Origin: Thermodesulfobacteriota bacterium
Lineage (GTDB): Bacteria > Desulfobacterota > Desulfobacteria > Desulfobacterales > SURF-7
NCBI GenBank assembly: GCA_049320885.1
Contig: JBMORA010000019.1
Coordinates: forward strand, 1-23,338
Length of the DNA: 23,338 nucleotides
Direction: 5' to 3'
Positions 1,214 to 23,144 of the stretch are shown piece by piece. A model generated the notes under the pieces. It saw only the letters and a list, made by a program, of their open reading frames with translations. It ran no database searches and had not been told where the DNA came from. The translations under genes and the position numbers were made by a program. Every line of letters begins with the position of its first letter. Position 1 is the first letter of the stretch.

Positions 1214-2623
<1,410 letters not shown>

Positions 2624-2681
2624 AACCCGGAATGAGAATCCGTACAACAATGCGGTCAAGCCGGAAAGATTCGATCCTTCC

Positions 2682-3041
2682 TCAGTTGTTGCCCAACTGG
2701 TCCTGCAACCATGTTTTTACCTCGCCTTCCACGGCGTAAACCCCCTTGTTGTATCCCACGGATTCCAGAAAATTTCTTTCCATTTCCGGCGGCATGGATA
2801 TCCGGGCCAGTTCCACGGCCTCCGCCGAATTCCGGCGGATCAGGTAGATCACCGGCTTTTCCTCCCAGGTGTTCACGGCGAAATAATAGGCCACATCGTT
2901 CTTCGACCGGATCACATAGTTGCTCCGGGCCCAGTTGTTGCCCCATTCCAGGTACAGGGTCACCGCTTCCTCGGGAGTCATTTCCCAGTTGATGTTGTTT
3001 AACAATTCCATATCGTTGCGGATTTCCGTCAAACCGTTCAT
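2682..3041 (-). CDS. DVU0772-family protein (oxidative-stress associated, function unknown)
   Basis: 'WEMTPEEAVTLYLEWGNNW' and 'YFAVNTW..KP..YLIRRNS' recognised as this family; start moved to ATG 3041, which follows GGGAGG. Confidence 0.75.
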   Translation of the reverse strand: MNGLTEIRNDMELLNNINWEMTPEEAVTLYLEWGNNWARSNYVIRSKNDVAYYFAVNTWEEKPVIYLIRRNSAEAVELARISMPPEMERNFLESVGYNKGVYAVEGEVKTWLQDQLGNN

Positions 3042-3488
3042 GCGTCCTCCCTTGTTCATTGTAAAAACCCATCCCCGTTTTCACCGATACGCAATCATTG
3101 GTGTAATAAAGCAAAAAGCATGCAAGCGATGGGCGGCAAAGCGGGCGGATCTTGTCCCGGGATAGCGGAAGCCTGGATTATCGCTGGTTGGCGGCCCCCA
3201 CCGGATACCGCCGTGCCGGTTTCCGGACAAGCGTAGTGGACGTGTTGCCGGAGAGGGACCGGAAAAATTGTCTTCCGGCGCAGAGATGTATCGGGATGGA
3301 ATCTGAGACATTACGATAACCGTTTAAAATAAAGAGATAAAACAACATTCATGCTGATTCGGCTTTACTTTGGATCTTTTTTTCTCTACATAATGAAAGG
3401 CAATGGGCAGCAGGGGTGCCGGCGTAGCAATCACCAGTCCTCTCTTTGGATGCACGATAAACCGAAACCTGAAGGAAAGGAGAACACG

Positions 3489-3647
3489 ATGGATAAATAT
3501 GTATGTCAGATCTGCGGGTATGTGTACGATCCCGAGGCCGGCGATCCGGACAACGGCGTGGCGCCGGGAACCTCCTTCGAGAATCTGCCGGACGACTGGC
3601 AGTGTCCCATATGCGGGGCCTCGAAAGACGATTTCGTCAAGGAATAG
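3489..3647 (+). CDS. rub: Rubredoxin
   Basis: 52 aa; CxxCGYVYDP...LPDDWxCPxCG; AAGGAG RBS before ATG 3489. Confidence 0.97.
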
Positions 3648-3760: not shown

Positions 3761-4954
3761 ATGAAACCGATAGAAATTGCCAAGGGAATCTACGATGTGG
3801 GAGTAACAGATTGGAATATCCGGGATTTTCATGGATACTCCACCGACATGGGTACCACCTACAACGCTTTTTTATTGCTGGATGAGAAAATCACCCTGGT
3901 GGACACGGTGAAAAAGGAATTCAGCGATCAACTGCTGCAGAATATCGAACAGGTCATCGATCCGAAACAGATCGATCTGGTCATCAGCAACCATACGGAA
4001 ATGGACCATTCCGGCGCCCTTCCCCGGGTGATGCAGCGCATCGGCCGGGAAAAACCGGTTTATTGCTCCAAAATGGGCCTCAAGAACCTCGGCCTGCATT
4101 TCGGCAACGAATGGAATTACCGCGCGGTGGAAAACGGCGAGACGCTGAGCATCGGCCGGCGGACGCTCCAGTTCCTGGAAACCCGGATGCTCCACTGGCC
4201 GGACAGCATGTTCACGTATGTGCCGGAAGACAAGATCCTGTTTTCCAGCGACGCTTTCGGGCAGCATTACGCCGGTCCGGAAAAATTCGATGATCGTCTC
4301 GATGCGACCATCCTGCATCAGGCCAAGAAGTACTACGCCAACATCCTGCTGCTGTATTCCGCCAAAACCCAGAAACTGCTGGAAAAGGTGTCCGAGATGG
4401 GGCTGGAGATCCGGATGATCTGCCCGGATCATGGCATCATCTGGCGCAAGAACCCGGCGGCCATCATCCAGGCCTATGTCGACTGGAGCGCCCAGAAACC
4501 GGCCAAAAAAGCCATCGTGATCTATGACACCATGTGGCAGAGCACGGAAAAGATGGCGGCGGCCATTGGGCAGGGCATCAAGGAACATGGGGTGGACGTG
4601 AAACCGCTGCACCTGCGCAGAAACCATCGCAGCGACATCATGACCGACGTCCTGGACGCCAAAGCCATCGTCGTCGGTTCGCCCACGCTGAACAACTGCC
4701 TGTTCCCGACCATCAGTGATTTTCTGACCTATATGAAGGGCCTGAAACCGCGGAACAAAGTCGCCGCCGCCTTCGGGTCCTACGGCTGGAGCGGCGAGGC
4801 GGTGAAAATGATCAACCAGGAGCTGGAGGCCATGGAGTTCCGGCTCATCGATCCGGGATGCCGGATCCAGTATGTTCCGGATCCGGCGGGGATCGAGGCC
4901 TGCCTGGAGCTGGGCCGCAGGATCGGCGCCGCGGTGGTCTCCGAGGAAGCCTGA
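3761..4954 (+). CDS. fprA: Flavodiiron protein FprA / rubredoxin:oxygen oxidoreductase
   Basis: GTTYNA, HTEMDH, LHWPDSM, SDAFGQH, PDHG diiron motifs; flavodoxin domain with GSPTLN and FGSYGWSGE. Confidence 0.95.
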   Translation: MKPIEIAKGIYDVGVTDWNIRDFHGYSTDMGTTYNAFLLLDEKITLVDTVKKEFSDQLLQNIEQVIDPKQIDLVISNHTEMDHSGALPRVMQRIGREKPVYCSKMGLKNLGLHFGNEWNYRAVENGETLSIGRRTLQFLETRMLHWPDSMFTYVPEDKILFSSDAFGQHYAGPEKFDDRLDATILHQAKKYYANILLLYSAKTQKLLEKVSEMGLEIRMICPDHGIIWRKNPAAIIQAYVDWSAQKPAKKAIVIYDTMWQSTEKMAAAIGQGIKEHGVDVKPLHLRRNHRSDIMTDVLDAKAIVVGSPTLNNCLFPTISDFLTYMKGLKPRNKVAAAFGSYGWSGEAVKMINQELEAMEFRLIDPGCRIQYVPDPAGIEACLELGRRIGAAVVSEEA

Positions 4955-5076: not shown

Positions 5077-5286
5077 ATGGCCGAATCGGTGGCGTCAAAA
5101 GTTCCGGTGGTGGATCTCGATGAATGCATCCTCTGCGGGGTCTGCGTCGAGGTCTGTCCGGCGGTTTTCCGGGAAAACGATGCCGGGTACATCGAAGTGG
5201 CGGAGCTGGCCGAATATCCCGAGGCGGAAGTCGACGAGGCCGCGAAAAATTGTCCCAGGGACTGCATTCGCTGGGAAGACCGGTAG
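5077..5286 (+). CDS. Single-cluster [4Fe-4S]/[3Fe-4S] ferredoxin
   Basis: CILCGVCVEVCP plus distal CPRDCI; acidic, 69 aa. Confidence 0.9.
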   Translation: MAESVASKVPVVDLDECILCGVCVEVCPAVFRENDAGYIEVAELAEYPEAEVDEAAKNCPRDCIRWEDR

Positions 5287-5298
5287 GAAAGACACGGC

Positions 5299-5976
5299 TT
5301 GAAAACAGGCGCCGGAACATACCGCCGGCAGGTGGAAGCGAGCCTGCGCCGGCCCGGACTGGATGCCGTGGTGACGGACATGCTGCGGCTGGACGCCCGC
5401 AAAACCGTCGCCGCCCTCCTGTCGCTGCTCTGCCACCGGGAGGAGCTCCTTCGCTGGCGGGCGGTATCCGCCTTGGGGGCGGTGGTGGCCGCCCTGGCGG
5501 ACCGGGAGATGGAGGCCGCCAGGATCGTCATGCGGCGCTTCATGTGGTCCCTGAACGACGAGTCGGGCGGGATCGGCTGGGGAATTCCGGAATCCATGGG
5601 GGAGACCATGGCCAGGCAGGAAACCCTGGCCCGGGAATACCATCGCATCCTGATCTCCTACCTCCGGCCGGACGGCAATTTCATCGAATATGAAATGCTT
5701 CAGCGCGGCGTGTTGTGGGGTGTCGGGCGTCTGGCTCAGACCAGGGCCCATCTGCTCACGGATGCAGGGGAGCTGCTGCTGCCGTATTTCCGCTCGGCGG
5801 ATCCGGTCTGCCGGGGCCTTTCGGCCTGGGCCGCCGGAATGGTCGGGCCGGACGAAATCCGGCGATCCGCCGGAATACTTGCGGCAGACCACGCCGAGGT
5901 GAAACTCTATCTGGACGGCGAGCTGCGCCATCTGACCGTGGCCCGGCTGGCGGCGTCAGGAGGGACGGGCATATGA
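5299..5976 (+). CDS. DVU0298-family / HEAT-repeat-like protein
   Basis: 'MRRFMWSLNDESGGIGWGIPESMGE' signature; stop overlaps the next ATG; TTG start uncertain. Confidence 0.75.
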   Translation: MKTGAGTYRRQVEASLRRPGLDAVVTDMLRLDARKTVAALLSLLCHREELLRWRAVSALGAVVAALADREMEAARIVMRRFMWSLNDESGGIGWGIPESMGETMARQETLAREYHRILISYLRPDGNFIEYEMLQRGVLWGVGRLAQTRAHLLTDAGELLLPYFRSADPVCRGLSAWAAGMVGPDEIRRSAGILAADHAEVKLYLDGELRHLTVARLAASGGTGI

Positions 5977-7064
5977 ATATCGTTGCGCTGGTGCCTTCGC
6001 CCGATGCGATTCCGGTTCATTGGGGCTGGCTCCGGATTTTCCATCTGGCCACTTTTTTTCTCCATCTGCTGTGCATGAATGTGATGCTGGGCGGCAGCCT
6101 GATCGCCTGTTTCGAGGTTCTCGGCAATCCATCGGCGAAGCCCGGCGAAGGGGAATACCGGCGGACCCTGTTCCAGCACCTGCCGTTTGCCGCGGCCTTT
6201 GCCGTCAACGCCGGCGTGGCCCCGCTTCTGTTTCTCCAGACGCTTTACGGCAATCTGATATACACCAGCTCCATACTCATGGGCGCGTACTGGCTGTCGG
6301 TCATCGGGGCCCTGCTGATCGCCTACTACGGTGCCTATTTCCTGAAATACCGGTACGACGCCCTGGGGGCCTTGCGCTTGTTCCCGGCGATCCTGGTTCC
6401 CCTGCTGCTATTGTATATCGCCTTCGTGTTCACCAGCAACATGGCCCTGATGCAGCAACCGGCGGCCTGGGACGCCTATTTTACCAACCCCGGCGGGACG
6501 ATGCTGCCGGTATCCGATCCGACACTGCCGCCGCGGTTTTTCCATTTCGTTACCGCTTCCGTGGCCGTGGCCGGCTTGTTCACGGCCGCCTTCTGGTCCC
6601 TTGGAAAACGCAAGGCGACGGCGGCGGCGGAACGCCACGTCCGGCGGGGGATGCGCTATTATATCGGCGCAACCTGGGTGCAGATGGCCGTGGGGTTGTG
6701 GTTGCTGTGGAAACATCCCGGACCCGTCCGCGGTTTGATGCTGGGCGGTGATCCGCTTGTCACCGCCCTGTTGGTATTCGGCCTGCTCAGCGGGTTTGCG
6801 GGCATCGTCCTGGCATGGAAACGCCGGGTATGGGCAACGGTTTGGGTCACCCTGGCGTCCGTCGGGTTCATGGTCGGGTTGCGGGAAGCGGTGCGCACGG
6901 CTTACCTTGCGCCGTATTTCACGCTGGATTCCATTCCGGTTCAGCCCCAGTACGGCCCCCTGGCGGTCTTTATCCTGGCCCTCGCGGCGGGGGCCGCGGC
7001 CATCATCCATATGCTTCGTCTGAACTCCGGAACATCTTCCGGGAGAATGGACACGGAACCATGA
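5973..7064 (+). CDS. CydA-fold integral membrane protein (CydA'-like second subunit of a non-canonical cytochrome bd)
   Basis: 363 aa, about 9 hydrophobic segments; 'TFFLHLL..N..LGG', 'PRFFHFV.AS.AVAG' and 'LREAVR' parallel CydA helices I, V and VIII; ATGA overlaps at both ends, AGGAGGG upstream. Confidence 0.75.
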   Translation: MNIVALVPSPDAIPVHWGWLRIFHLATFFLHLLCMNVMLGGSLIACFEVLGNPSAKPGEGEYRRTLFQHLPFAAAFAVNAGVAPLLFLQTLYGNLIYTSSILMGAYWLSVIGALLIAYYGAYFLKYRYDALGALRLFPAILVPLLLLYIAFVFTSNMALMQQPAAWDAYFTNPGGTMLPVSDPTLPPRFFHFVTASVAVAGLFTAAFWSLGKRKATAAAERHVRRGMRYYIGATWVQMAVGLWLLWKHPGPVRGLMLGGDPLVTALLVFGLLSGFAGIVLAWKRRVWATVWVTLASVGFMVGLREAVRTAYLAPYFTLDSIPVQPQYGPLAVFILALAAGAAAIIHMLRLNSGTSSGRMDTEP

Positions 7065-9736
7065 ACGCGACCTGGTTGATTCAGTATCCGGTCTGGGACC
7101 TGGGCGTTTTCGGCGGCGGGTTGCTCATCGCCCTGGTGGCGACCGTCCATGTCTATGTTTCCCATTTCGCCGTGGGCGGAGGGTTTTTTCTGGTCCTGAC
7201 CGAACGCAAGGCCGTCCGGGAAAACTCCCAACCCCTGATGGACTATGTCCACCGCCACACCCGGTTTTTCCTCCTGCTGACCATGGTGTTCGGCGCCCTG
7301 ACCGGCGTGGGCATCTGGTTCACCATCTCCCTGCTGAACCCCACCGCCACCAGCCGGCTGATCCATATCTTCGTTTTTGCCTTCGCCACCGAATGGGTCT
7401 TTTTCCTGTGCGAGATCATCGCGTTGTTCATTTATTACCATCGCTTCGACAGCATGGAACGGAGCCGGCACCTGCGCATCGGCTGGCTGTACGCCCTGTT
7501 CGCCTTCCTGTCCCTGTTTGTCATCAACGGCATTGTCGCATTCATGCTGACCCCGGGGAAATGGCTCCACAGCGGGGATTTCTGGCATGGTTTCTTCAAC
7601 CCGACCTTCTGGCCGGCGCTGTTTTTCCGGACCTTCATGGCCTTGATGCTGGCCGGGATTTTCGGGCTCGTCACCGCGGTGTTCATCCGGCAGGAGGAGC
7701 TGCGCGCGACCCTGGTGCGGTACTGCGCCAAATGGCTGCTGCTGCCCTTCCCGGGGCTGGTGCTTTCGGCCTGGGGCTACATTGCCGTGTTGCCGGAACA
7801 ACAGGTTGCCATGATTTTCCAGCGTTCTCCGGAAATCCTGCCGTTTCTGAAATCCTTCGGGGTGATCGGCGGCCTGCTGTTCCTTGCGGGCTGTCTGGGG
7901 CTGACCCGGTTTGCCTCCCAACGCTGCCGGAAGATCCTTGCCTTCGGGTTGCTCCTGTTGGGGTTCGGTTTCATGGGCTCGTTCGAATGGATTCGGGAAG
8001 CCGGGCGCCGGCCGTTTATCCTGTATGGCCTTGCCTATTCGAATGCGGTGCTGGCCGAAGATCTGGAAGTCTTGTCGCAACAGGGGATTCTGGCCTCCAC
8101 CCGCTGGGCCCGATACCGGACCATCGGCAAAGACAACGAAATGGAAGCCGGCCGGGAGCTGTTTGCTTTCATGTGCGCCGGCTGCCATTCCATCGGCGGG
8201 CCCATGAACGACATCAAGGCCCTGACCCGGGATATCCCGGTTACGGGGCTGACGGCCATGCTGGCCGGCATGGGCAGGATCAACGACTATATGCCGCCGT
8301 TTCCCGGAACCGCTGCAGAGCGACAGGCCCTGGCGACGTATATCGCGGCGGGGCTGAACGGGAATGCCGAACCCCATGCCGGGGTGATGCCGGCGAAGGA
8401 GCGCGCCTTTGATCAGCCCCGCTTCGACGCCGGAAAGGATGCCCATGTGCTGCTGGCCTGGTGCGATCAGGGGGTGCAACTGTTGACGGATGCGGATGGT
8501 TTCTTCCGCCTGGCCGCACCGGGAGTGGACATCCACGCCCAGTTGATCCGGCGCGGGGAAACCCCGGAGATCGTCACCGAAGGCGCGGAGGTGACCTACC
8601 GGATCGAAGACGGCTTCCAGCAGCCGGCGGAGCGGGTCGATTATTGGCGTTTCGCCAGGACATCGGCTGGAAAGCCGCTGCCGCCGAACACCGGAGCGGC
8701 CGGTAAAACCGTCGCCGGCCGGATGGACATCCTGGAGGAAAGCACGGGATTCATCGCCCGGAAGGTTCCGGTGGTGCCCTACACCTCGTCCGGGGAGTTT
8801 CACCCATACCCGCTGATCACCGTCGAAGCCAGGGACAGCGACGACGGAAAGCTGCTGGCCGCGACCCGGTTCACGGCCGCCGTGTCCACGGAGCTGGGAT
8901 GCCGGCGCTGCCATGGTGGACCCTGGCGTTTCCAAAACACAACCGGCATTTCGGATCAAACCGCCCGCCATATTCTGTCCGTCCATGATCGCAGCAACCG
9001 CACCGATCTGTCCTCCCGGGCCGCCCGGGGGGCTCCCCCCTCCTGTCACGACTGTCATCCCTCCGGACAAGGCGCCGGAGACGGCCGGGGGGACCTCCTC
9101 AATCTTTCAGCGGCCATCCACGGGTTCCATGCCAATTACATGACCGGTGGTGATGCGGCCGACTCCTGCATGATCTGCCATCCGGATTCCCCGGAGGGCT
9201 TCACCCGCGGGTTCCGGGGGATCCACCATGCCCTGGGAATGGACTGCGGCAATTGTCATGGGCGCATGGAAGAGCATGCCGTCAGCCTGCTGCTGCCGGA
9301 ACTGGACGCCGCCAAAAAAGGCGCCTACCGGTTGATGAAACACTTGACGTCGGAAAATACCGGCGATATGAATGGGATAGCCGCGAGGAGACCCTGGGTC
9401 AACGAGCCGGATTGTCTGAACTGCCACCAGGATTTTCAGCCTCCGGAGACGGATCAGGCGGGACTCGATCAGTGGACCAAGGAAGAGGGCCTGCTTTTCC
9501 GTGCGCGAACCGATGAGGTCGGCCTGCGGTGTCCGGCCTGCCATGGGATCACCCACGCCGTTTACCCGGCCACGAATATTTTCGGGCAGGACCGCGACAA
9601 CATTCAACCGGTGCAGTATCAGGGCGAGCCGTATCCCATCGGCTCCAACCGGAATTGCAAGGTTTGTCATACAATCGATATGACGGAGGAAATTCATCAT
9701 CCGAACATGCTGGGGTTGTTCCGTAACACCCGGTAA
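7061..9736 (+). CDS. Cytochrome bd subunit I-like protein fused to c-type cytochrome domains (8 CxxCH)
   Basis: 891 aa. N-terminal CydA fold ('VHVYVSHFAVGG', 'GALTGVGIW', 'TEWVFFLCE', 'FFNPT', 'EWIREAGRRPF'), then CAGCH...MPPF, CRRCH, CHDCH, CMICH, CGNCH, CLNCH, CPACH, CKVCH. Start at ATG 7061 overlapping the upstream TGA. Confidence 0.9.
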   Translation: MNATWLIQYPVWDLGVFGGGLLIALVATVHVYVSHFAVGGGFFLVLTERKAVRENSQPLMDYVHRHTRFFLLLTMVFGALTGVGIWFTISLLNPTATSRLIHIFVFAFATEWVFFLCEIIALFIYYHRFDSMERSRHLRIGWLYALFAFLSLFVINGIVAFMLTPGKWLHSGDFWHGFFNPTFWPALFFRTFMALMLAGIFGLVTAVFIRQEELRATLVRYCAKWLLLPFPGLVLSAWGYIAVLPEQQVAMIFQRSPEILPFLKSFGVIGGLLFLAGCLGLTRFASQRCRKILAFGLLLLGFGFMGSFEWIREAGRRPFILYGLAYSNAVLAEDLEVLSQQGILASTRWARYRTIGKDNEMEAGRELFAFMCAGCHSIGGPMNDIKALTRDIPVTGLTAMLAGMGRINDYMPPFPGTAAERQALATYIAAGLNGNAEPHAGVMPAKERAFDQPRFDAGKDAHVLLAWCDQGVQLLTDADGFFRLAAPGVDIHAQLIRRGETPEIVTEGAEVTYRIEDGFQQPAERVDYWRFARTSAGKPLPPNTGAAGKTVAGRMDILEESTGFIARKVPVVPYTSSGEFHPYPLITVEARDSDDGKLLAATRFTAAVSTELGCRRCHGGPWRFQNTTGISDQTARHILSVHDRSNRTDLSSRAARGAPPSCHDCHPSGQGAGDGRGDLLNLSAAIHGFHANYMTGGDAADSCMICHPDSPEGFTRGFRGIHHALGMDCGNCHGRMEEHAVSLLLPELDAAKKGAYRLMKHLTSENTGDMNGIAARRPWVNEPDCLNCHQDFQPPETDQAGLDQWTKEEGLLFRARTDEVGLRCPACHGITHAVYPATNIFGQDRDNIQPVQYQGEPYPIGSNRNCKVCHTIDMTEEIHHPNMLGLFRNTR

Positions 9737-9754
9737 CACGACAAGGTGAGCGCG

Positions 9755-11239
9755 ATGGCGAGCAGAAGTTTCCGTTTTCGGGCGGCGATACGAATGGCGC
9801 CGGTGTTGTTGTTGCTGCAAATTTCCCTGGCGGCCGGGGAGGGAAAATACGATTATTCCAGCATCCGGGAGGAATATTCCGAGGCTGTTTGTCTGCTGGA
9901 ACGCGCCGATCAAGGCGGCGGTCCCCGGGACGAGGCCTCCCGGTGCCTCCTGGATCGCCCCGTCGATCTCCGGGAAGCCATCGGCATCGCCATTCAAAAC
10001 AACCCGGACAGCCAGATGGCCATGACCCGGATCCGGCAGACCGAAGCCGCCCTCGAAATGTCCCGGGCCGCCTTTTATCCGGCCCTGGGCATCTACACGG
10101 AATACCTCCAGGGCGACGCGCCTTCCGCCTATCTGTTCAAAACCATCGACCAGCGCTCCCTGCCACCCGGAACGGATTTCAACGATCCGGGCTGGTTCCG
10201 GAACATGGAAACCGGCCTGGTGGGGAAAATCAACCTGTTCAACGGCGGCAGGGACTGGCTCCAGAACCGGATGGCCGCCACCCAGGTGACCATTTCCCGG
10301 CTGGACCGGTTGGCGGTGGAGAATTCGCTGGCGGCGGCGGTGATCTCGGCATATTATGATTATCTGGCGGCCCAGGATTTCATCAAGATCGCCGAGGAAT
10401 CGGTGGCCACGGTCCAGTCCCAGCTCGATATCATGACGGCGCGATACCGGGCGGGCGGGGCCTTGAAATCGGATATTCTGTCGCTGGAAGTGCGGCTGGC
10501 CCGGGCCCGGGAAGAGGTGCTCATCAGCCGGAACCGGTCCCAGATGGCCATGGCGGCCCTGAGCAATCTCCTGGGCCTCCGTCCCGACCGGGAAATCCGC
10601 TTCCACAAGTCAACCCTGGGAAACATCGCCGTGCCGGAGGATTACGCCAGCGGGGTTGTCCAGGCCCTGGAGAACAGACCCGAGCTGAAGAAGGTCCGGG
10701 AACAGCTCAGCCAGTCCCGCATGGCCGTCGATCTGGCCAGGGCCGAGTATCTGCCCACCCTGGATCTCCAGGGGAAATATTATCACGATGATCCGGATTT
10801 CGCTTATGACCAGGATCGCCAGAACTGGACCGTGGGAATGGTGCTGAACTGGTATTTCTTTACCGGTCTGTCCACCCGGGCCGCCCACCGCCAATCCTCG
10901 GCCCGGCTGGAGGAGATTCTGGCCGGTGACCGCAAGAATGTCCTTTCAATTCAATTGGATGTAAAGAATGCCTACCTGAAGCTGGAGGAAGCCCGGGCGC
11001 GATTGACGGTGGCAGAAAAGAGCGTCGTGAGTGCCGAGGAGTCCCTGGCCCTGGTGAAAGTCCAATTCGAAGGCGGTTCGGCCACCATCACGCGGTATCT
11101 GGAGGCGGAATTGGCCCGGAATTCGGCGCGCATCAGTTCCACCACGGCTTTTTTTGACCGGGAAAAGGCCCTGGCCGATATCGGCAGGGCCGTGGGGTTG
11201 CTGGGCCCCATGTTCCGGCATGACCGGGAAGGTGGATGA
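9755..11239 (+). CDS. TolC-family outer membrane efflux protein
   Basis: Signal-peptide-like N-terminus; 'AIQNNPD', 'AAFYP', 'NLFNGG', 'ALENRPEL', 'AEYLPTL' duplicated OEP pattern; start may be GTG 9746. Confidence 0.9.
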   Translation: MASRSFRFRAAIRMAPVLLLLQISLAAGEGKYDYSSIREEYSEAVCLLERADQGGGPRDEASRCLLDRPVDLREAIGIAIQNNPDSQMAMTRIRQTEAALEMSRAAFYPALGIYTEYLQGDAPSAYLFKTIDQRSLPPGTDFNDPGWFRNMETGLVGKINLFNGGRDWLQNRMAATQVTISRLDRLAVENSLAAAVISAYYDYLAAQDFIKIAEESVATVQSQLDIMTARYRAGGALKSDILSLEVRLARAREEVLISRNRSQMAMAALSNLLGLRPDREIRFHKSTLGNIAVPEDYASGVVQALENRPELKKVREQLSQSRMAVDLARAEYLPTLDLQGKYYHDDPDFAYDQDRQNWTVGMVLNWYFFTGLSTRAAHRQSSARLEEILAGDRKNVLSIQLDVKNAYLKLEEARARLTVAEKSVVSAEESLALVKVQFEGGSATITRYLEAELARNSARISSTTAFFDREKALADIGRAVGLLGPMFRHDREGG

Positions 11240-12718: not shown

Positions 12719-14584
12719 TCATTTCTGCTCAAACGGAATGGTCAGGGCGTACACCCCGTATTCCAGTTTGGCTTTCAACGGTCCCGCGCCTTTTTCGAAC
12801 ACTTTCATCATGGACGTGTTGGAGGAGAGCACATCGGCGGTGAATCCGTGGATGCCCCTTTCCTTGGCCAGGCGCATCAGCATCTGGTACATGTAGCTAG
12901 CGATCCCCAGGCCCTGATAGGCCTCGTCCACTACGAAGGCGACATCCGCGAACGGCGGGTTTCCGTTGTCCTTTACGAAACGCGCTTCCGCGATGATGTG
13001 CCCCTGGCCGGCATCCCCCACCAGACCCACGATGGACATGACTTTGCGGTAGTCCACATTGACGTATTTCTGCATTTTGTTGTGGGGCATGGTTTTGATG
13101 GAAGAAAAATACCGATAGTAGACCGCTTCGTCGGAAAACCGGTAAAACAGGCGGCGCATTTCCTCCTCATCGGAAGGCTTGATGGCGCGGAAACGAACTT
13201 CGACTCCGTTTTTAAAGGTATGCCGGGCGGCCACGTCGGCCGGATACAGGCTGGCCGCTTCGGCCAGGAAAATCTGGTCTTCGTACAGGATTTTTTCCGC
13301 TTTGGCCTGGGCCACGAGTTCGGCCCGGTCATCCGGATGGGCGATTTCGATCAATGCCTGGGCGCGTTCCCGGATGGTACGGCCGGATAAATTCGCCACG
13401 CCATATTCGGTGACCACCATGTCGACGGATTCCCTCAGGCCGAACTGGTTGGGGAATTGTTCCACTGTCAGGACGATATTGGCCGATTTTTTCAGATTCC
13501 GGCTGGGAAGGGCGAAGATGGTGAGACCGCCCTCGGATTGCTGGGCGCCGGTGACGAAATCGATGGCTTCCCCCGGGCTGGCGGCGACATTCCCCTTGCC
13601 GGTATGCAGGGCGATCCGGCCGGAAAGGTCCACCTTGCGGGCCGGCAATACCAGGGTGAACCGGGGATTGCGGCTGATCTGGGTGGAATCGAACACCTTG
13701 TCGGTGCTTTGAAATTCCACCAGGGGGTTGCGGTCCAGCCAGCACATCAGCTCCCTGCTGCCGAAGGCATAGGAGGCGACGGATTTCCCTCTCCAGATGG
13801 ATTTGTTGCGGTTGGTTACGGCTCCGCTTTTCACGAGGTCCATGAGGGCATCGGTGAAAAAGGGCGTATGGATGCCGAGATGGCGCTTGTTCGCCAGATG
13901 AGGGCTCAGGGCCTCGAACAAGGGGCCGATGGAAAAGGAGACGCAGCTGCCGTCCTCGATTTCCCGGGCCACGTTGGCGGCGACCTGATCGAAGACCTCG
14001 TCCACCGGCCACCTGTCGAAATAAATCGGCTCCTCGGTGGATTCGATGAGCATATCGAAGCAGGAGACCGGGACAAAGGTGTCGCCGAAGGTCTGGGGGA
14101 TCTGGCGGTTGATTTCCCCCACCACCAGGCAGGCCTGCTCCATGGCGTGATGGGCCGCATCCACGGAAACCCCGAGGCTGCAATAACCGGCCTCGTTGGG
14201 GGCGGTCACCTGAATGAAGGCGACATCCAGGGGAATGGTCCGGGAGGCGATGAGCTGCGGAATCCGGGAAAAACGGCTGGGAATCAGGTCCACCCGCCCG
14301 GCGACGATGGCTTCGCTGGCCACCCAGCCGGAAAAGAAGGTTTTCAGGCGGTATTTCTGCGTGCTGAGTTCCTGAATGGAAATGGCGTCACCGAGGCTCA
14401 CCAGCTGAATCAGGGAAAGATCCTGGAGATTGGGGGCGGTGGAGGCCATCAGATGTTTGACCAGGGTTCTGGGTTCCGCCAGGCCGGTGCCGATGAAAAT
14501 ACTCATGCCCGGTTCGATTTTTTCCATCACGGCGTCGGGTGTAACAATTATCCGTTTCCAGTCGGTTGGATTCTGGTTGTTCAA
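12719..14584 (-). CDS. Acetyl-CoA hydrolase/transferase fused to a C-terminal GNAT domain
   Basis: 'LDVAFIQV', 'GYCSLGVSVD', 'TDALMDLVKSGAVTN', 'VVTEYGVANL.G....ERAQALIEIAHPDDR'; GNAT 'VAFVVDEAYQGLGIAS'. TTG start with GGGAGA upstream. Confidence 0.93.
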   Translation of the reverse strand: MNNQNPTDWKRIIVTPDAVMEKIEPGMSIFIGTGLAEPRTLVKHLMASTAPNLQDLSLIQLVSLGDAISIQELSTQKYRLKTFFSGWVASEAIVAGRVDLIPSRFSRIPQLIASRTIPLDVAFIQVTAPNEAGYCSLGVSVDAAHHAMEQACLVVGEINRQIPQTFGDTFVPVSCFDMLIESTEEPIYFDRWPVDEVFDQVAANVAREIEDGSCVSFSIGPLFEALSPHLANKRHLGIHTPFFTDALMDLVKSGAVTNRNKSIWRGKSVASYAFGSRELMCWLDRNPLVEFQSTDKVFDSTQISRNPRFTLVLPARKVDLSGRIALHTGKGNVAASPGEAIDFVTGAQQSEGGLTIFALPSRNLKKSANIVLTVEQFPNQFGLRESVDMVVTEYGVANLSGRTIRERAQALIEIAHPDDRAELVAQAKAEKILYEDQIFLAEAASLYPADVAARHTFKNGVEVRFRAIKPSDEEEMRRLFYRFSDEAVYYRYFSSIKTMPHNKMQKYVNVDYRKVMSIVGLVGDAGQGHIIAEARFVKDNGNPPFADVAFVVDEAYQGLGIASYMYQMLMRLAKERGIHGFTADVLSSNTSMMKVFEKGAGPLKAKLEYGVYALTIPFEQK

Positions 14585-14597
14585 TGGGGTGTCTCCC

Positions 14598-14753
14598 TCA
14601 TGGGTTTGGCTGTTTCCGTTCGTCGGCCTTTTTTTTGTCTGTCACCTGACAGGCGTCCTTCATTCAGGTGGAAATGCCGAACCTGGGAAGAATGTAGGCC
14701 TGGAGCACATACCAGACGGCGATAAACAGGATCAGGGCGATGAGTTCCTTCAT
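14598..14753 (-). CDS. Candidate 51-aa single-TM selenoprotein (in-frame TGA at 14664-14666)
   Basis: AGGAGG RBS (14759-14764) 5 nt before ATG; reads MKELIALILFIAVWYVLQAYILPRFGIST-U-MKDACQVTDKKKADERKQPNP; SECIS-like hairpin 11 nt after the TGA. Without recoding it is a 29-aa membrane peptide. Confidence 0.7.
14639..14652 (-). promoter_or_regulatory. Putative bacterial SECIS hairpin
   Basis: CTGTC-AGGT-GACAG; stem begins 11 nt and loop 16 nt after the UGA, with a G in the first two loop positions. Confidence 0.55.
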
Positions 14754-17298: not shown

Positions 17299-18927
17299 CT
17301 ATCCCAGGATGGCCTTCAGATCCTCATCCGGCGTCTTGATGGGCATGATGTTGAAATTCTTCACCAGCACATCCAGCACGTTGGGCGTGATGAAGGCCGG
17401 CAGGGAGGGCCCCAGACGGATGTTCTTGATGCCCAGGTGCAGCAGGCTCAGCAGGATGGCGCAGGCTTTCTGCTCATACCAGGACAGCACCATGGAAAGG
17501 GGCAGGTCGTTCACTCCGCAGTTGAAGGCGTTGGCCAGGGCCACGGCGATCTGCACCGCCGAATAGGCGTCGTTGCACTGCCCGATATCCAGGAGCCGCG
17601 GGATCCCGCCGATGTCGCCGAGTTCCTGGTCGAAGAACCGGAACTTGCCGCAGGCCAGGGTCAGCACCACGCAATCCCTGGGGATTTTTTCCACCAGCTC
17701 CGTATAGTAGTTGCGTCCGGGTTTGGCCCCGTCGCAGCCGGCCACCAGGAAGAAATGCCGGATGGCCTTGCTCTTCACGGCGTCGATGACCTGCCCGGCC
17801 ACGCCCAGAACCGCGTTGCGGGCAAAGCCCACCATGACGGATTTGCCGGCCTCGTCCGCCGGGAAGCCCGGCATGGAAAGGGCTTTATCAATGACCGGGG
17901 TGAAATCCTTGTTCGCTATATGGGCGACACCCGGCCAACCCACCAGTCCGGTGGTGAAGATATGATCCTGATAACTGTCCTTCGGCTTCTGAATACAGTT
18001 GGTGGTCATCAGAATGGCGCCGGGGAAGGCCTCGAATTCCTTGGCCTGATTCTGCCAGGCCGTGCCGTAATGGCCATGGAAATGCGGATATTTTTTCAGT
18101 TCCGGATACCCGTGGCAGGGGAGCATTTCCCCATGGGTGTAAACAGTGATGCCTTTGCCGGCGCTCTGTTTCAGGATCAGTTCCAGATCCTTCAGGTCAT
18201 GGCCCGACACCAGGATGGCCTTGCCCTTCTTGGCCCCCAGGGGCACGGCCGTGGGCACCGGATGGCCGTATGCGCCGGTATTGGCGGCATCCAGCAATTC
18301 CATGGCCCGCAGGTTGGTGGCTCCGCATTTCAGGGCCAGGCCCACCAGGTCGTTGACTCCCAGGGAGTTGTTGAGGGTGGCGGCCAGGCCTTCGTAAATG
18401 AAGGCGAACACCGCCGGGTCGCTTTTGCCCAGAATCGCCGCATGATCCGCGTAGGCCGCGACGCCCTTGATGCCGTAAACCAGGAGTTCCCGCAACGCGC
18501 GGATATCCGCATTCAGGGTGGGATCGGCCATGACGCCGACTTTTTCCCCCTGGGCCACCAGCCCGGCGGTGGTGGTCTCCGGCTGGAAGGCCACGGCGGC
18601 TTCCGTGAAACGGGTGTTGCCGCCGGCTTTACCGACTTTATCCGTCAGGGCTTTCCGGGCGTCGACGCTTTTACGGATGAGCGAAACGAAGCGGTCCGGA
18701 TCGAAATCGACATTGGTCAGGGTGGAAAAAATCGCCTCGCAGGCCAGCCGGTCGACGGCCTCATCCACGACGCCCACCCGTCTGCCCTCCAGGGCCACCA
18801 CGGAAAGCCCCTTGACGACATACAGCAGGGCATCCTGCAAAGCCGCCACTTCCGGTTGTTTGCCGCATACGCCGATTTTCGTGCATCCTTCGCCTTTGGC
18901 CGTTTGTTCGCATTGATAACAAAACAT
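17299..18927 (-). CDS. hcp: Hybrid cluster protein (hydroxylamine/NO reductase)
   Basis: MFCYQCEQT...C...GVCGK, SGHDL, YTHGEMLP, MTTNC, GCDG, LACGK, DIGQCNDAYS, SWYEQK; 542 aa; AAGGAG RBS. Confidence 0.98.
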   Translation of the reverse strand: MFCYQCEQTAKGEGCTKIGVCGKQPEVAALQDALLYVVKGLSVVALEGRRVGVVDEAVDRLACEAIFSTLTNVDFDPDRFVSLIRKSVDARKALTDKVGKAGGNTRFTEAAVAFQPETTTAGLVAQGEKVGVMADPTLNADIRALRELLVYGIKGVAAYADHAAILGKSDPAVFAFIYEGLAATLNNSLGVNDLVGLALKCGATNLRAMELLDAANTGAYGHPVPTAVPLGAKKGKAILVSGHDLKDLELILKQSAGKGITVYTHGEMLPCHGYPELKKYPHFHGHYGTAWQNQAKEFEAFPGAILMTTNCIQKPKDSYQDHIFTTGLVGWPGVAHIANKDFTPVIDKALSMPGFPADEAGKSVMVGFARNAVLGVAGQVIDAVKSKAIRHFFLVAGCDGAKPGRNYYTELVEKIPRDCVVLTLACGKFRFFDQELGDIGGIPRLLDIGQCNDAYSAVQIAVALANAFNCGVNDLPLSMVLSWYEQKACAILLSLLHLGIKNIRLGPSLPAFITPNVLDVLVKNFNIMPIKTPDEDLKAILG

Positions 18928-19020
18928 GGTTTCTCTCCTTTCGATGGCTATGTTGTCCGTTTTGAATGGTTGTTGCCGTTCTTGTTGACCCCTTTCTACC
19001 GGCAAAACCGTCGCATGACC

Positions 19021-19034
19021 TTGACTTAGGTCAA
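19021..19034. promoter_or_regulatory. HcpR (FNR-like) binding site
   Basis: Perfect TTGAC-N4-GTCAA between divergent hcp and the Crp/Fnr gene. Confidence 0.8.
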
Positions 19035-19084
19035 ATCCGGGTGGTAATGCATATTTTTTTGAAAAAATAATGAGGAGACCCTCC

Positions 19085-19786
19085 ATGAAATCCATTGCCG
19101 AGATTCTGACCGCCACTTCCCTGTTCCAGGGGCTGCCGGAGGAACAGCTCGCCGATATCGCCTCCATCGCGGTAAATCGTGAATACCAGCGGGATGAAAT
19201 GATTTTCAGCGAGGGCGACGACGGGGACGGATTCTATGTCGTGGCCGACGGGCTCATCAAAGTATTCAAGGTATCCACGGAAGGCAAGGAACAGATCCTT
19301 CATATTTTCAGCGGCGGCGAACCCGTCGGGGAAGTGCCGGTTTTTTCCGGCCGGAAATTCCCGGCCTCGGCCCTGGCCCTCAAAAGGAGCCGGATGCTGT
19401 TTTTCCCGCGAAAAGCCTTTGTGGATTTGATTTCCGCCCACCCGTCGCTGGCCTTGAACATGCTGGCCGTTTTGGCCATGCGGCTGCGCCAGTTCACGGT
19501 GCAGATCGAGAACCTCTCCCTCAAGGAGGTGCCGGGGCGGCTGGCCGGCTACCTGCTGTATCTTTCGGAGGAGCAGGGCGGAAGTAGAACCGTCAGTCTT
19601 TCCATTTCAAAGGGCCAGCTGGCGAGTCTGCTGGGCACCATTCCGGAGACCCTGTCGCGGATCCTTGCGAAAATGACTTCCCAGGACCTGATCCACGTCA
19701 AGGGCCGGGATATCCGCCTGCTTGACCTGGAAGGTCTGGCGGAGCTGTCCGAAACCGGAAAAATGGCGGAAGACAAGACATCATAA
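19085..19786 (+). CDS. hcpR: Crp/Fnr-family regulator HcpR
   Basis: cNMP-fold 'IFSEGD..DGFY.V..G.IKVFK.S.EGKEQIL', HTH 'LASLLGTIPETLSR'; divergent from hcp; GAGGAG RBS. Confidence 0.9.
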   Translation: MKSIAEILTATSLFQGLPEEQLADIASIAVNREYQRDEMIFSEGDDGDGFYVVADGLIKVFKVSTEGKEQILHIFSGGEPVGEVPVFSGRKFPASALALKRSRMLFFPRKAFVDLISAHPSLALNMLAVLAMRLRQFTVQIENLSLKEVPGRLAGYLLYLSEEQGGSRTVSLSISKGQLASLLGTIPETLSRILAKMTSQDLIHVKGRDIRLLDLEGLAELSETGKMAEDKTS

Positions 19787-20008: not shown

Positions 20009-20485
20009 TTATTTGGGCAGGGCCACCAGCTTTTTGCTCAGGGTGCGCACATGTCCCATTTCTTCCTTGATGACCTGATCGATGCGATTCCGGCCCATTT
20101 TTTCCGGCACCATGTCCCGCAGCCCCAGGTAGAAGACGATGGAGTCCTTTTCCGCCTCGATGGCGGATTTCAGGATCTCCCGGATGGAATCCACCGGCAT
20201 GTCCTTTTTATAGAAGACGCGGATGTCCACCAGGGCGCGGAGGTATTGGCCGGCCTCGCCGTCCGGGTCGAAGACCGTGGATTGTTTTTCTTTCTCGGAA
20301 AGTTCTTTTTTGATGGCGGTGAACGTTTTTTCGTGATCATCCTCCATGGCCGCCAGTTCCAGGAGGAGTTTCTTGGCGTCCGCATCCGTCATTTTCTGGG
20401 CGGATGCGCGGTAAAATCCCGCGCCGTTGCGCTCCATCTGCACAGCCATTTCCATGATGTCGGAGGCGTTGAAATCGTAACTCAT
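20009..20485 (-). CDS. Ferritin-like / rubrerythrin diiron-domain protein (no rubredoxin domain)
   Basis: 'A..MERNG..FY', 'LA.MEDDH', 'AIEAEKDSIVFY', 'EEMGH' - duplicated E...ExxH pattern. Confidence 0.88.
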   Translation of the reverse strand: MSYDFNASDIMEMAVQMERNGAGFYRASAQKMTDADAKKLLLELAAMEDDHEKTFTAIKKELSEKEKQSTVFDPDGEAGQYLRALVDIRVFYKKDMPVDSIREILKSAIEAEKDSIVFYLGLRDMVPEKMGRNRIDQVIKEEMGHVRTLSKKLVALPK

Positions 20486-21875: not shown

Positions 21876-23144
21876 TCAGGCCTTGATGTAAATTCCTTTG
21901 CCGGCGGTTGAAATTTTCCCCAGTTTTTTCAGTTTGTTGATGATAGCCTGCAGTATCTTGCCATCCAGGCCGGTTTTGTGTTGTAGGGTTTTCGAATCGA
22001 TTCCTGTTTTCGATTTTTCAATGAAAGAGTAAACCGTATCCATATCGGATTTGTTTCCTGTTTTTTCAACGGGAGGCCTGCTTGTTGCCGATTTGTCATT
22101 CGGTAGTACGTTGGAATCCAGTTTACCAGCCGGTTTTCCATTGTCATAGAAGCGTTGGAGTCTGGCTCGTATCCTTTTTTCAAGATAGCCCTGAACGACG
22201 TCCTTTTCTATGATCGGTAAAGCTGTTTCTTCCAACTCGTTTATGATCATGTCCTTGGTTATTCCTATGTCCTTGAGCAGGCGGCGCATCCTTTTTTTTC
22301 CGTATTTTTCAAAAAAATACGTAATCAGGTTGTTTGCTATTTCCGAGAATATACTGCTTTGCCGATAATCCGTCCAGAAATCCCTGATATTTTGAGCCAG
22401 GGCGTCAATATGGCCTTTGTCGATAAATTCGGCGATGGAGTGCGAATTATATTTTCCCGCTTTTGACCATATCTCTGCTCCGGATTTCCGGATCATTTTT
22501 TCATCAAAAGCATCGATAAGAAATTGCTCACTTTTTTTCAAATGGTTTTCAATATAGGCTTTGACGAATTTTTTGATCTGCTCATCGATCTGGCCGGCAA
22601 TATTATCCGACAGGCCAAAAGTTGTTTTATTCAGAAAACCCTTGTAGGCGTGTAGAAGGGAAGATGCCCCGGGAACTTTTTTCATGATCAGGTTCTCGGA
22701 GACAACAAACGCCTTGATGCCGCCGTAAAGTGTTTCGGTAATCAGCATGGAAAAAATCGTGCTGGATACAATATGGTTGATAATTTCGTTCCGGAGATTT
22801 TCGATCCCCAATGTGTTTTGGACGAATTCATCAAACAATTTCCTTGAGAGGATCTGCTTTAAAATGGTGTCGTCGTTGTCCAGGCACCCCTGAATTTTTT
22901 TTGCGCATTCGGTAATGAAATCAGGTATCTCATCGGGAATCGGACGATGAATGACATTCCGTTGAAAAAAATCGATGATCATTTCGGCGGAAGTAAAATC
23001 GTCAAGGCATAATTCGTCGAACAACGCAAACAAAGCGGTTACTTCTTCACGGATGGTCTGCCGTAAACCCTCCCCTCTCAGGGCCTGTAGCTCAAACTGA
23101 ATATGATTCTCAACAGCAGTGTTTTTTTCATTGCGCGGTGGCAT
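21876..23144 (-). CDS. Hypothetical helical protein with a C-terminal winged-helix-like domain
   Basis: 422-aa AT-rich ORF with AAGGAG RBS; the last ~55 aa ('VYSFIEKSKTGID...L..KTGL.......I.KLKK.GKI.....GIY') look like a wHTH. Confidence 0.75.
   Translation of the reverse strand: MPPRNEKNTAVENHIQFELQALRGEGLRQTIREEVTALFALFDELCLDDFTSAEMIIDFFQRNVIHRPIPDEIPDFITECAKKIQGCLDNDDTILKQILSRKLFDEFVQNTLGIENLRNEIINHIVSSTIFSMLITETLYGGIKAFVVSENLIMKKVPGASSLLHAYKGFLNKTTFGLSDNIAGQIDEQIKKFVKAYIENHLKKSEQFLIDAFDEKMIRKSGAEIWSKAGKYNSHSIAEFIDKGHIDALAQNIRDFWTDYRQSSIFSEIANNLITYFFEKYGKKRMRRLLKDIGITKDMIINELEETALPIIEKDVVQGYLEKRIRARLQRFYDNGKPAGKLDSNVLPNDKSATSRPPVEKTGNKSDMDTVYSFIEKSKTGIDSKTLQHKTGLDGKILQAIINKLKKLGKISTAGKGIYIKA

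Follow-up and report, generated by a model that had tools for sequence, protein, structure and literature searches.

The stretch of DNA analyzed here (hereafter the window) comprises 23,338 nucleotides (nt), positions 1 to 23,338 of the forward strand of contig JBMORA010000019.1 (GenBank assembly GCA_049320885.1), from a Thermodesulfobacteriota bacterium assigned to Desulfobacterales, SURF-7. It carries two overlapping genes for proteins related to CydA, subunit I of cytochrome bd. The larger gene, a single open frame at 7061-9736 on the forward strand, encodes an 891 amino acid (aa) subunit of the OR-C1a type (Murali, Gennis and Hemp, 2021; bioRxiv 10.1101/2021.01.16.426971), in which a CydA-like membrane domain is followed by eight c-type heme motifs; the smaller encodes an OR-C1b-like protein, referred to below as the partner. 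A preliminary description, made from the sequence letters, gave a correct account of the large gene, but overlooked both the partner gene at 5973-7064 and the operon of rubredoxin and flavodiiron protein (FDP) genes that precedes it. The features of the pair are as follows, all on the forward strand:

5973..7064, +, partner subunit, OR-C1b-like, 363 aa, CydA fold, nine predicted helices (profile comparison, model)
7061..9736, +, OR-C1a-type large subunit, 891 aa: CydA-like membrane domain, class I cytochrome c, beta-rich domain and seven-heme domain
7121..8008, +, eight-helix CydA-like domain, aa 21-316 (model, structural match, profile alignments, conservation)
8126..8356, +, class I cytochrome c domain, about aa 356-432, with CAGCH at 8174 and Met411 as the likely distal ligand
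8423..8893, +, heme-free beta-rich domain, about aa 455-611 (predicted model)
8900..9700, +, seven CxxCH motifs with eight conserved non-motif His (motif scan, alignment)

The membrane domain and its paralogous partner

Homology of the membrane domain to CydA, proposed earlier from its motifs, was upheld by both alignment and structure prediction. The large subunit scores 42.9 bits against Pfam PF01654 (cut-off 26.2), and in its AlphaFold2 model (121 sequences; pLDDT 91.7, pTM 0.88) eight long helices spanning aa 21-316 lead into a cytochrome domain that is also helical, after which come a beta-rich domain (~455-611) and the multiheme part; the number of hydropathy peaks is also eight. The top ten Foldseek matches to this model are all CydA chains (E 6e-8 to 2e-6), and VIA superposes residues 18-330 on residues 9-396 of Geobacillus CydA (Z 31.1, root mean square deviation 2.5, 311 residues), a range that fits the loss of both the Q-loop and helix 9. 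Given eight helices and a structural match that stops before the ninth helix of CydA, the C-terminus of the modelled protein is likely to be periplasmic, as had been anticipated.

In Escherichia coli cytochrome bd, heme b558 is ligated by His186 and Met393, b595 by Glu445 and d by His19, as given in excerpts of PMC8585947, and the roles attributed below to His19, Glu445, Glu99, His186 and Met393 follow excerpts of that paper and of PMC6853902. The helix-I His and the E..FF..E and E.GR.P motifs credited to the window protein are all present (H30, EWVFFLCE at aa 111-118 and EAGRRP at aa 313). Profile and structure alignments equate H30 with His19, E111 and E118 with Glu99 and Glu107, and E313 with Glu445, with H30, E111 and E118 pairing with Geobacillus H21, E101 and E108; the gap between the two helix-3 glutamates is six residues (WVFFLC). 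E111, E118 and E313 occur in all rows of a 121-row alignment and H30 in 119, the other two having gaps, and all four residues are kept in 21/21 sequences spanning three architectures. The Q-loop motif is indeed missing, neither K.AA.E nor K.A..E being found by motif scan in aa 1-450, whereas 17/17 canonical CydA controls of the same phylum contain KxAAxE and 16/17 contain FRxM. Heme b558 is probably absent from the large subunit, because the His186 position is occupied by R190 in 121/121 rows and no conserved Met is found in that alignment at the Met393 position or on helix 7. E309 lies at the Trp441 position in the ungapped register, although one hidden Markov model alignment opens a gap there instead, and together with H35 and R312 it is a family-specific invariant. 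Y125 is also invariant; at position 127, the other residue of the tyrosine pair that characterizes OR-C1a, at least 90% of family members have Tyr, whereas the window protein has His.

The partner (numbered here on sequence P0002, without the first Met) is a paralog of this membrane domain (hhalign 95.6%, E 1e-8; 97.7% with wider profiles). A Pfam scan of the partner gave no match, and hhalign relates it to CydA in profile-profile comparison (90.9%) but not against a single CydA sequence; its model (pLDDT 93.3) nevertheless matches CydA over the whole length (VIA Z 27.1). Eight helices are suggested by hydropathy and nine by the model, the ninth pairing with CydA helix 9. The His19 equivalent, H30, is retained, while helix 3 contains no Glu, leaving Glu99 and Glu107 without equivalents, and the partner sequence lacks KxAAxE. 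Five residues, H30, H190, M299, R303 and R187, are invariant in 149/149 close rows, and the first four are also kept in 21/21 sequences across architectures. H190 stands at the canonical His186 position and M299 on helix 8 beside the Trp441 position, rather than at the helix-7 Met393 position, and the two possibly constitute an extra heme site. M102 was rejected as a general heme ligand, being kept in 146/149 close rows but in 5/21 sequences across architectures.

The partner stop codon and the start codon of the large gene overlap in the sequence ATGA, and at 34 of 37 loci the partner is the immediate upstream neighbour of the large gene; the remaining three are cut by contig ends. At one further locus (L082, genome G229, 83% complete) no partner was found within 1 kb upstream of the large gene; it is located on another contig. 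A suspected fusion of the two genes at L080 was not found. The two proteins would form a heterodimer. Three loci in genomes of family f13 (L078, L079 and L081) contain a further CydA-like protein of 330-345 aa with weak PF01654 and partner-profile matches.

The heme-bearing region and the range of the family

The eight CxxCH motifs of the 891-aa protein comprise CAGCH at nt 8174 (aa 372) and seven others at nt 8900, 9044, 9167, 9245, 9413, 9530 and 9656, the last ending at 9670, and the seven previously listed between 8900 and 9670 were thus all recovered. They are not due to chance, because all eight are kept in 120/120 proteins (the query and 119 homologs). Every Cys/Cys/His set is likewise retained in the 121-row alignment, with changed spacing of the last motif in 5/121 rows (L015, L019, L020, L022 and L024), where the altered Cys spacing possibly marks a non-canonical heme attachment site. 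A motif scan of the large subunit detected no CxxCK-type motif.

The first motif belongs to a class I cytochrome c domain, in agreement with the earlier reading of CAGCH and the MPPF motif at aa 411: PF13442 is matched with 29.1 bits, cytochrome c6 proteins with E 6e-5, and C372, C375, H376 and M411 are present in 121/121 rows. The following segment of about 200 aa is heme-free, as had been noted, but is not the spacer it was taken for, since the model shows a folded beta-rich domain at about aa 455-611. This domain has only weak Ig-like and macroglobulin matches (Z 5.1-5.7, below the trust level of the tool), and the C-terminal module within the full model has no clear match among solved structures, which is not evidence of a new fold. 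Eight conserved His outside the motifs (642, 687, 690, 722, 739, 832, 879 and 880) lie in the seven-heme region and, judged from the alignment, would suffice for bis-His ligation of all seven hemes. Hemes with His/Met ligation tend to have higher potentials than bis-His hemes.

The beta-rich domain and seven-heme region also occur together without a bd domain, in 24 matches of at least 400 aa among 90 shorter proteins, and 14 of these 24 have an N-terminal hydrophobic segment (KD15 at least 2.0). Stand-alone proteins with a beta domain, six to eight hemes and N-terminal hydrophobic segments include P0249, P0250, P0281, P0285-P0301, P0327 and P0330; this uncharacterized family likewise has no clear solved match. 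The stand-alone relatives have a GMHC motif; among members of the fused family it varies, and the window protein has lost it. In Atlas structure neighbours (TM 0.75-0.87) the module is joined to Ig, PKD and secretion-tail domains. Because it is found both alone and in such multidomain proteins, it looks like a mobile module that was added to a one-heme core.

The large-subunit family is common, with 2271 matches among 8000 scored candidates, the best 120 of which are 49-100% identical and nearly full length. Its closest named relatives are from Desulfobacterales (73% and 63% identity); further relatives occur in Desulfovibrionales, Calditrichota, Cloacimonadota, Fibrobacteraceae, Bacteroidales and Planctomycetales, and cultured organisms among the named matches are Desulfonema and Halodesulfovibrio. 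Within the phylum, 35 of 201 sampled genomes have partner profile matches at E <= 1e-10. Loci from 20 of the 34 other partner-bearing genomes fall into three architectures: six are eight-heme, ten combine a one-heme large subunit with a partner encoded after it, and four have a one-heme large subunit and a partner fused to two hemes, the one-heme large subunits lacking the beta-plus-seven-heme module. In L058-L061, which belong to the last of these and have a two-heme cytochrome gene upstream (in L061 more heme proteins follow downstream), the partner c-hemes come after helix 8 and no ninth hydrophobic helix is present, providing a natural control for a periplasmic fusion point. In a quick tree of 59 membrane domains (60 loci minus one truncated and one duplicate, plus the window protein), the multiheme forms constitute a single branch of 45 rows with support 97.

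Gene neighbourhood and genome context

The partner and large genes close a co-oriented run in the window that begins with the following genes:

3489..3647, +, rubredoxin, first gene of the run (PF00301, 92.4 bits)
3761..4954, +, two-domain FDP (solved relatives 1ycf, 1e5d)
5077..5286, +, small single-cluster ferredoxin (PF13459/PF13370)
5299..5976, +, DVU0298-family HEAT-repeat protein, overlapping the partner start (NF045662, 237.7 bits, cut-off 75)

The best solved relatives of the FDP are 1ycf ('nitric oxide reductase'; E 1e-121) and then 1e5d (rubredoxin:oxygen oxidoreductase; E 8e-110). The order rubredoxin-FDP-ferredoxin-DVU0298-partner-large is found in the window and in 6 of the 60 other loci. 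In genomes G219 and G221 the co-oriented run extends unbroken upstream into genes for an FMN reductase, a class III cytochrome c, CydB, CydA, desulfoferrodoxin and rubrerythrin, and G202 has the same island order with an insert. In the host genome itself, contig C62 (G000:C62:584-6438, reverse strand) carries rubrerythrin, desulfoferrodoxin, flavodoxin, cydA, cydB, three-heme cytochrome c and FMN reductase genes up to the contig end; this run is probably the upstream half of the island in the window, and C62 would then adjoin it. A one-heme form at L050, situated between a ferritin gene and rubredoxin-FDP, provides an independent link to O2 defence. At least one of rubrerythrin, desulfoferrodoxin, ferritin, cydAB, rubredoxin and FDP was present in the fetched span of 10 of the 60 loci, many of which are truncated. 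The link to O2 defence is strong in Desulfobacterales and weak elsewhere.

Upstream of the operon (window 1214-3059) are a PAS sigma-54 activator gene and a DVU0772-family gene, also seen at L002/L086 and L085, which are possible regulators of the island; nothing useful on DVU0298 or DVU0772 was found in the literature. A promoter and terminator scan was uninformative (2 promoter-like sites against 3.2 expected, 14 terminator-like sites against 10.0 expected), and a simple scan for Crp/HcpR-like palindromes gave no site upstream of the operon and a single site far away, at 14636. Nine bp past the large gene is a gene for a TolC-like outer membrane protein (window 9746-11239); a TolC-like gene at L084 is followed by a membrane-fusion protein gene, and membrane-fusion and RND genes occur at L083, while in the window none of these accessory genes follows.

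The genome (5.6 Mb, 98% complete) contains dsrA and heme c maturation genes, and the host is most likely a sulfate-reducing member of the Desulfobacterales, because dsrA is present and the closest named protein relatives are from that order. The only CydB (PF02322) match of the genome lies on C62 beside the canonical cydA, which tblastn with both subunits missed and a Pfam search detected. A 745-aa heme-copper family protein (PF00115 match; L040:667-2904, G000:C9) is presumably similar to quinol-dependent nitric oxide reductase (NOR), to judge from length and motifs. Among 33 partner-bearing genomes, all drafts and related ones not independent, canonical CydA is present in 16 and was not detected in 17; of these 17, 15 also show no above-cut-off match to the heme-copper family, which counts in favour of the O2 reductase reading given below.

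Elsewhere in the window, positions 17299-19786 contain a gene for hybrid cluster protein (Hcp; NF003658 over the cut-off, reverse strand, start probably near 18927), a divergent Crp/Fnr regulator and then HD and Fe-S protein genes, likely a nitrosative-stress module. On the reverse strand are also an acetyl-CoA hydrolase/transferase fused to a GNAT acetyltransferase domain (12719-14584), a rubrerythrin/ferritin-like protein (20009-20485), a 422-aa protein without Pfam or NCBIfam match in the low-GC end of the window (21876-23144) and, in a low-GC (0.42) segment at 363-928, two short genes that resemble a BrnT/BrnA-type toxin-antitoxin pair.

Proposed function and relation to known systems

The reading favoured here, and considered moderately probable, is that the protein is an O2 reductase fed by cytochrome c, drawing its electrons from periplasmic cytochromes rather than from quinol and likely paired with the upstream paralog. 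Motifs, model fold, conservation and gene order are the observations from which the heterodimer, heme content, potentials, topology, direction of electron flow and substrate of this scheme are projected. Electrons would enter from periplasmic carriers of low potential, for example the class III cytochrome c encoded in the island, which would reduce the seven probably bis-His hemes, and these low-spin hemes would hand electrons to the His/Met class I heme. The latter may replace b558 as the electron entry point, because it directly follows the E313-GRRP loop, while R190 and E309 probably occupy the empty b558 pocket. Electrons would arrive at a two-heme site held by H30 and E313, where O2 would be reduced to water, with protons supplied from the cytoplasm via E118 and E111, so that turnover would be electrogenic. 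The predicted role is O2 scavenging at the cell envelope of an anaerobe, alongside CydAB, FDP and superoxide reductase. The earlier proposal of a bd-type O2 (or NO) reductase fed by a periplasmic heme wire is thus partly supported, with O2 favoured over NO as substrate from the gene neighbourhood in one lineage.

Several observations weigh against this interpretation. With Glu at the Trp441 position and the additional invariants His35 and Arg312, the enzyme may follow a chemistry other than that of bd. The invariant His190 and Met299 of the partner are left unexplained by a simple O2 reductase. In the quick tree, 48 of 59 rows lack oxygen-defence neighbours in the fetched span, and 8 of the 11 linked rows, the window included, lie in one branch, with at least three changes forced by starred branches. 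Canonical CydA is present in 13/13 eight-heme genomes tested, the host included (one classed by frame length only), and the OR-C1 enzyme is thus not needed as sole oxidase. The solved chain that the FDP neighbour resembles most (1ycf) bears the name nitric oxide reductase. Hcp and the Crp/Fnr regulator are 8-10 kb away in the window, Hcp also falls inside the span at 3 of 60 loci, and the genome encodes a NOR-like heme-copper protein. Literature searches, in which few subscription journals were covered, found no activity data, purification or assay for OR-C1.

In an alternative that is considered unlikely, the pair is a quinone-to-periplasm oxidoreductase or a dual device: one or more partner hemes, held by His190/Met299 and by His30, would exchange electrons with menaquinone and relay them to the heme chain through the interface of the dimer, whether or not O2 is also reduced. 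It is consistent with the invariance of partner H30, H190, M299, R303 and R187 in the close rows, with the position of H190 at His186, with the persistence of all but R187 across architectures and with the full-length CydA match of the partner model, and His19 is near the subunit interface in the main text of Murali et al. (bioRxiv 10.1101/2021.01.16.426971). The same alternative has been published, in the portions available of the sources, for a cytochrome-fused CydA homolog of cable bacteria (10.64898/2026.01.20.700514, PMC13047784). However, M299 is on helix 8 instead of at the helix-7 Met393 position, the partner has no KxAAxE, the candidate second ligand of H30, M102, is not retained beyond the close eight-heme group, and the proton-channel glutamates kept by the large subunit would be superfluous in a pure electron conduit. 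A combined version, equally doubtful, can be envisaged, in which OR-C1 is a split and re-wired bd: the quinone-facing low-spin heme would have shifted to the partner (His190/Met299, with a relay via the interface His30 heme), joining the menaquinone pool, the periplasmic eight-heme wire and the O2 site in a device switchable between electron export and O2 reduction. If true, OR-C1 would offer an accessible system in which to study the role of the cytochrome-fused CydA from cable bacteria.

That the membrane site reduces NO or H2O2 instead of O2, in nitrosative or peroxide defence, appears decidedly less probable. The resemblance of the FDP to 1ycf and the presence of Hcp and a Crp/Fnr regulator in the window are in its favour, as are a Crp/Fnr regulator directly upstream at L055 and the invariants H35, E309 and R312, which could alter the site; quinol peroxidase activity has also been reported for E. 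coli bd (PMC4899803). The island conserved in G219, G221 and G202, however, carries genes for defence against O2 and reactive oxygen species, the spans of G219 and G221 contain no Hcp match, Hcp at other loci is several kb off on the opposite strand, the simple palindrome scan placed no Crp-like site upstream of the operon, and the genome encodes a separate NOR-like protein. Least probable, and very unlikely, is that the beta-plus-seven-heme module is itself an enzyme or an electron store whose electrons the bd-like domain merely vents or supplies. The module does exist without a bd domain, more than half of the stand-alone proteins of at least 400 aa (14/24) having an N-terminal hydrophobic segment, and its Atlas neighbours connect it to Ig, PKD and secretion-tail domains; yet the eight conserved His outside the motifs suffice to complete the ligation of all seven hemes, no CxxCK-type motif is present, the GMHC motif known from stand-alone relatives varies among the fused proteins and is lost in this one, and the module is wholly missing from one-heme forms.

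The prediction of a bd oxidase driven by cytochrome c dates from 2021. Should the O2 reductase reading be true, the bd superfamily would extend beyond quinol oxidation, and sulfate reducers exposed to O2 would have a sink in the membrane for electrons from the periplasm. The family being common and having cultured carriers (Desulfonema and Halodesulfovibrio), an experimental test is feasible. The value of the copy in the window resides in its clear oxygen-defence context and not in a new architecture. A search for multiheme-fused bd proteins found no useful paper, and no biochemical study of OR-C was found, few subscription journals being covered.

Among known systems, the pair fits OR-C1a/OR-C1b, a placement made from sequence features. 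In the main text of Murali et al. (bioRxiv 10.1101/2021.01.16.426971), OR-C1a is typically an eight-helix CydA homolog without quinol site, with C-terminal heme c (CxxCH) motifs and proton-channel glutamates six residues apart, and adjoins OR-C1b, a CydA paralog that has His19 and lacks the glutamates; O2 reductase activity is assumed there for OR-C1a, not demonstrated. These features are all shared by the pair, apart from one tyrosine (127 being His) and the helix count of the partner, OR-C1b having eight helices in that text and nine in the model obtained here. The main text gives no heme number, seven-heme module or b-subunit His/Met pair, which its supplements may cover. The assignment to OR-C made earlier is thereby borne out; for the alternative name 'CydAc', no relevant paper was found. 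The scheme of qOR, OR-C and OR-N families is still cited in a 2026 paper (PMC13189123, in excerpt). Membership of OR-N, with 10 or 14 transmembrane helices, was rejected in view of the eight helices of the large subunit, and membership of qOR in view of the missing Lys252/Glu257 Q-loop and His186/Met393 ligands and of a partner that is not CydB (no Pfam match). Canonical qOR enzymes (E. coli CydAB, Geobacillus CydABS) share with the large subunit the fold of helices 1-8, His19, Glu99, Glu107, Glu445 and the GRxP loop, but differ from it in having the Q-loop, His186 (here Arg), Met393, Trp441 (here Glu) and a ninth helix; the second subunit here is a CydA paralog instead of CydB, and eight c-hemes are fused.

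The archaeal CydAA' (qOR4a/4b, Caldivirga) is likewise a dimer of two CydA paralogs, the second with His19, but retains the quinol site and has no c-hemes; O2 reduction with b hemes only has been shown for it, according to the main text of the 2021 preprint (bioRxiv 10.1101/2021.01.16.426971). The cable bacteria homolog, for which the available portions of the sources leave the role split between quinone-to-periplasm transfer and O2 reduction (10.64898/2026.01.20.700514, PMC13047784), is also a distant CydA with a C-terminal periplasmic cytochrome domain from Desulfobacterota, a likeness drawn by description only. To what is known of these systems the present analysis adds the island context in Desulfobacterales, the partner invariants His30, His190 and Met299, and the stand-alone seven-heme modules.

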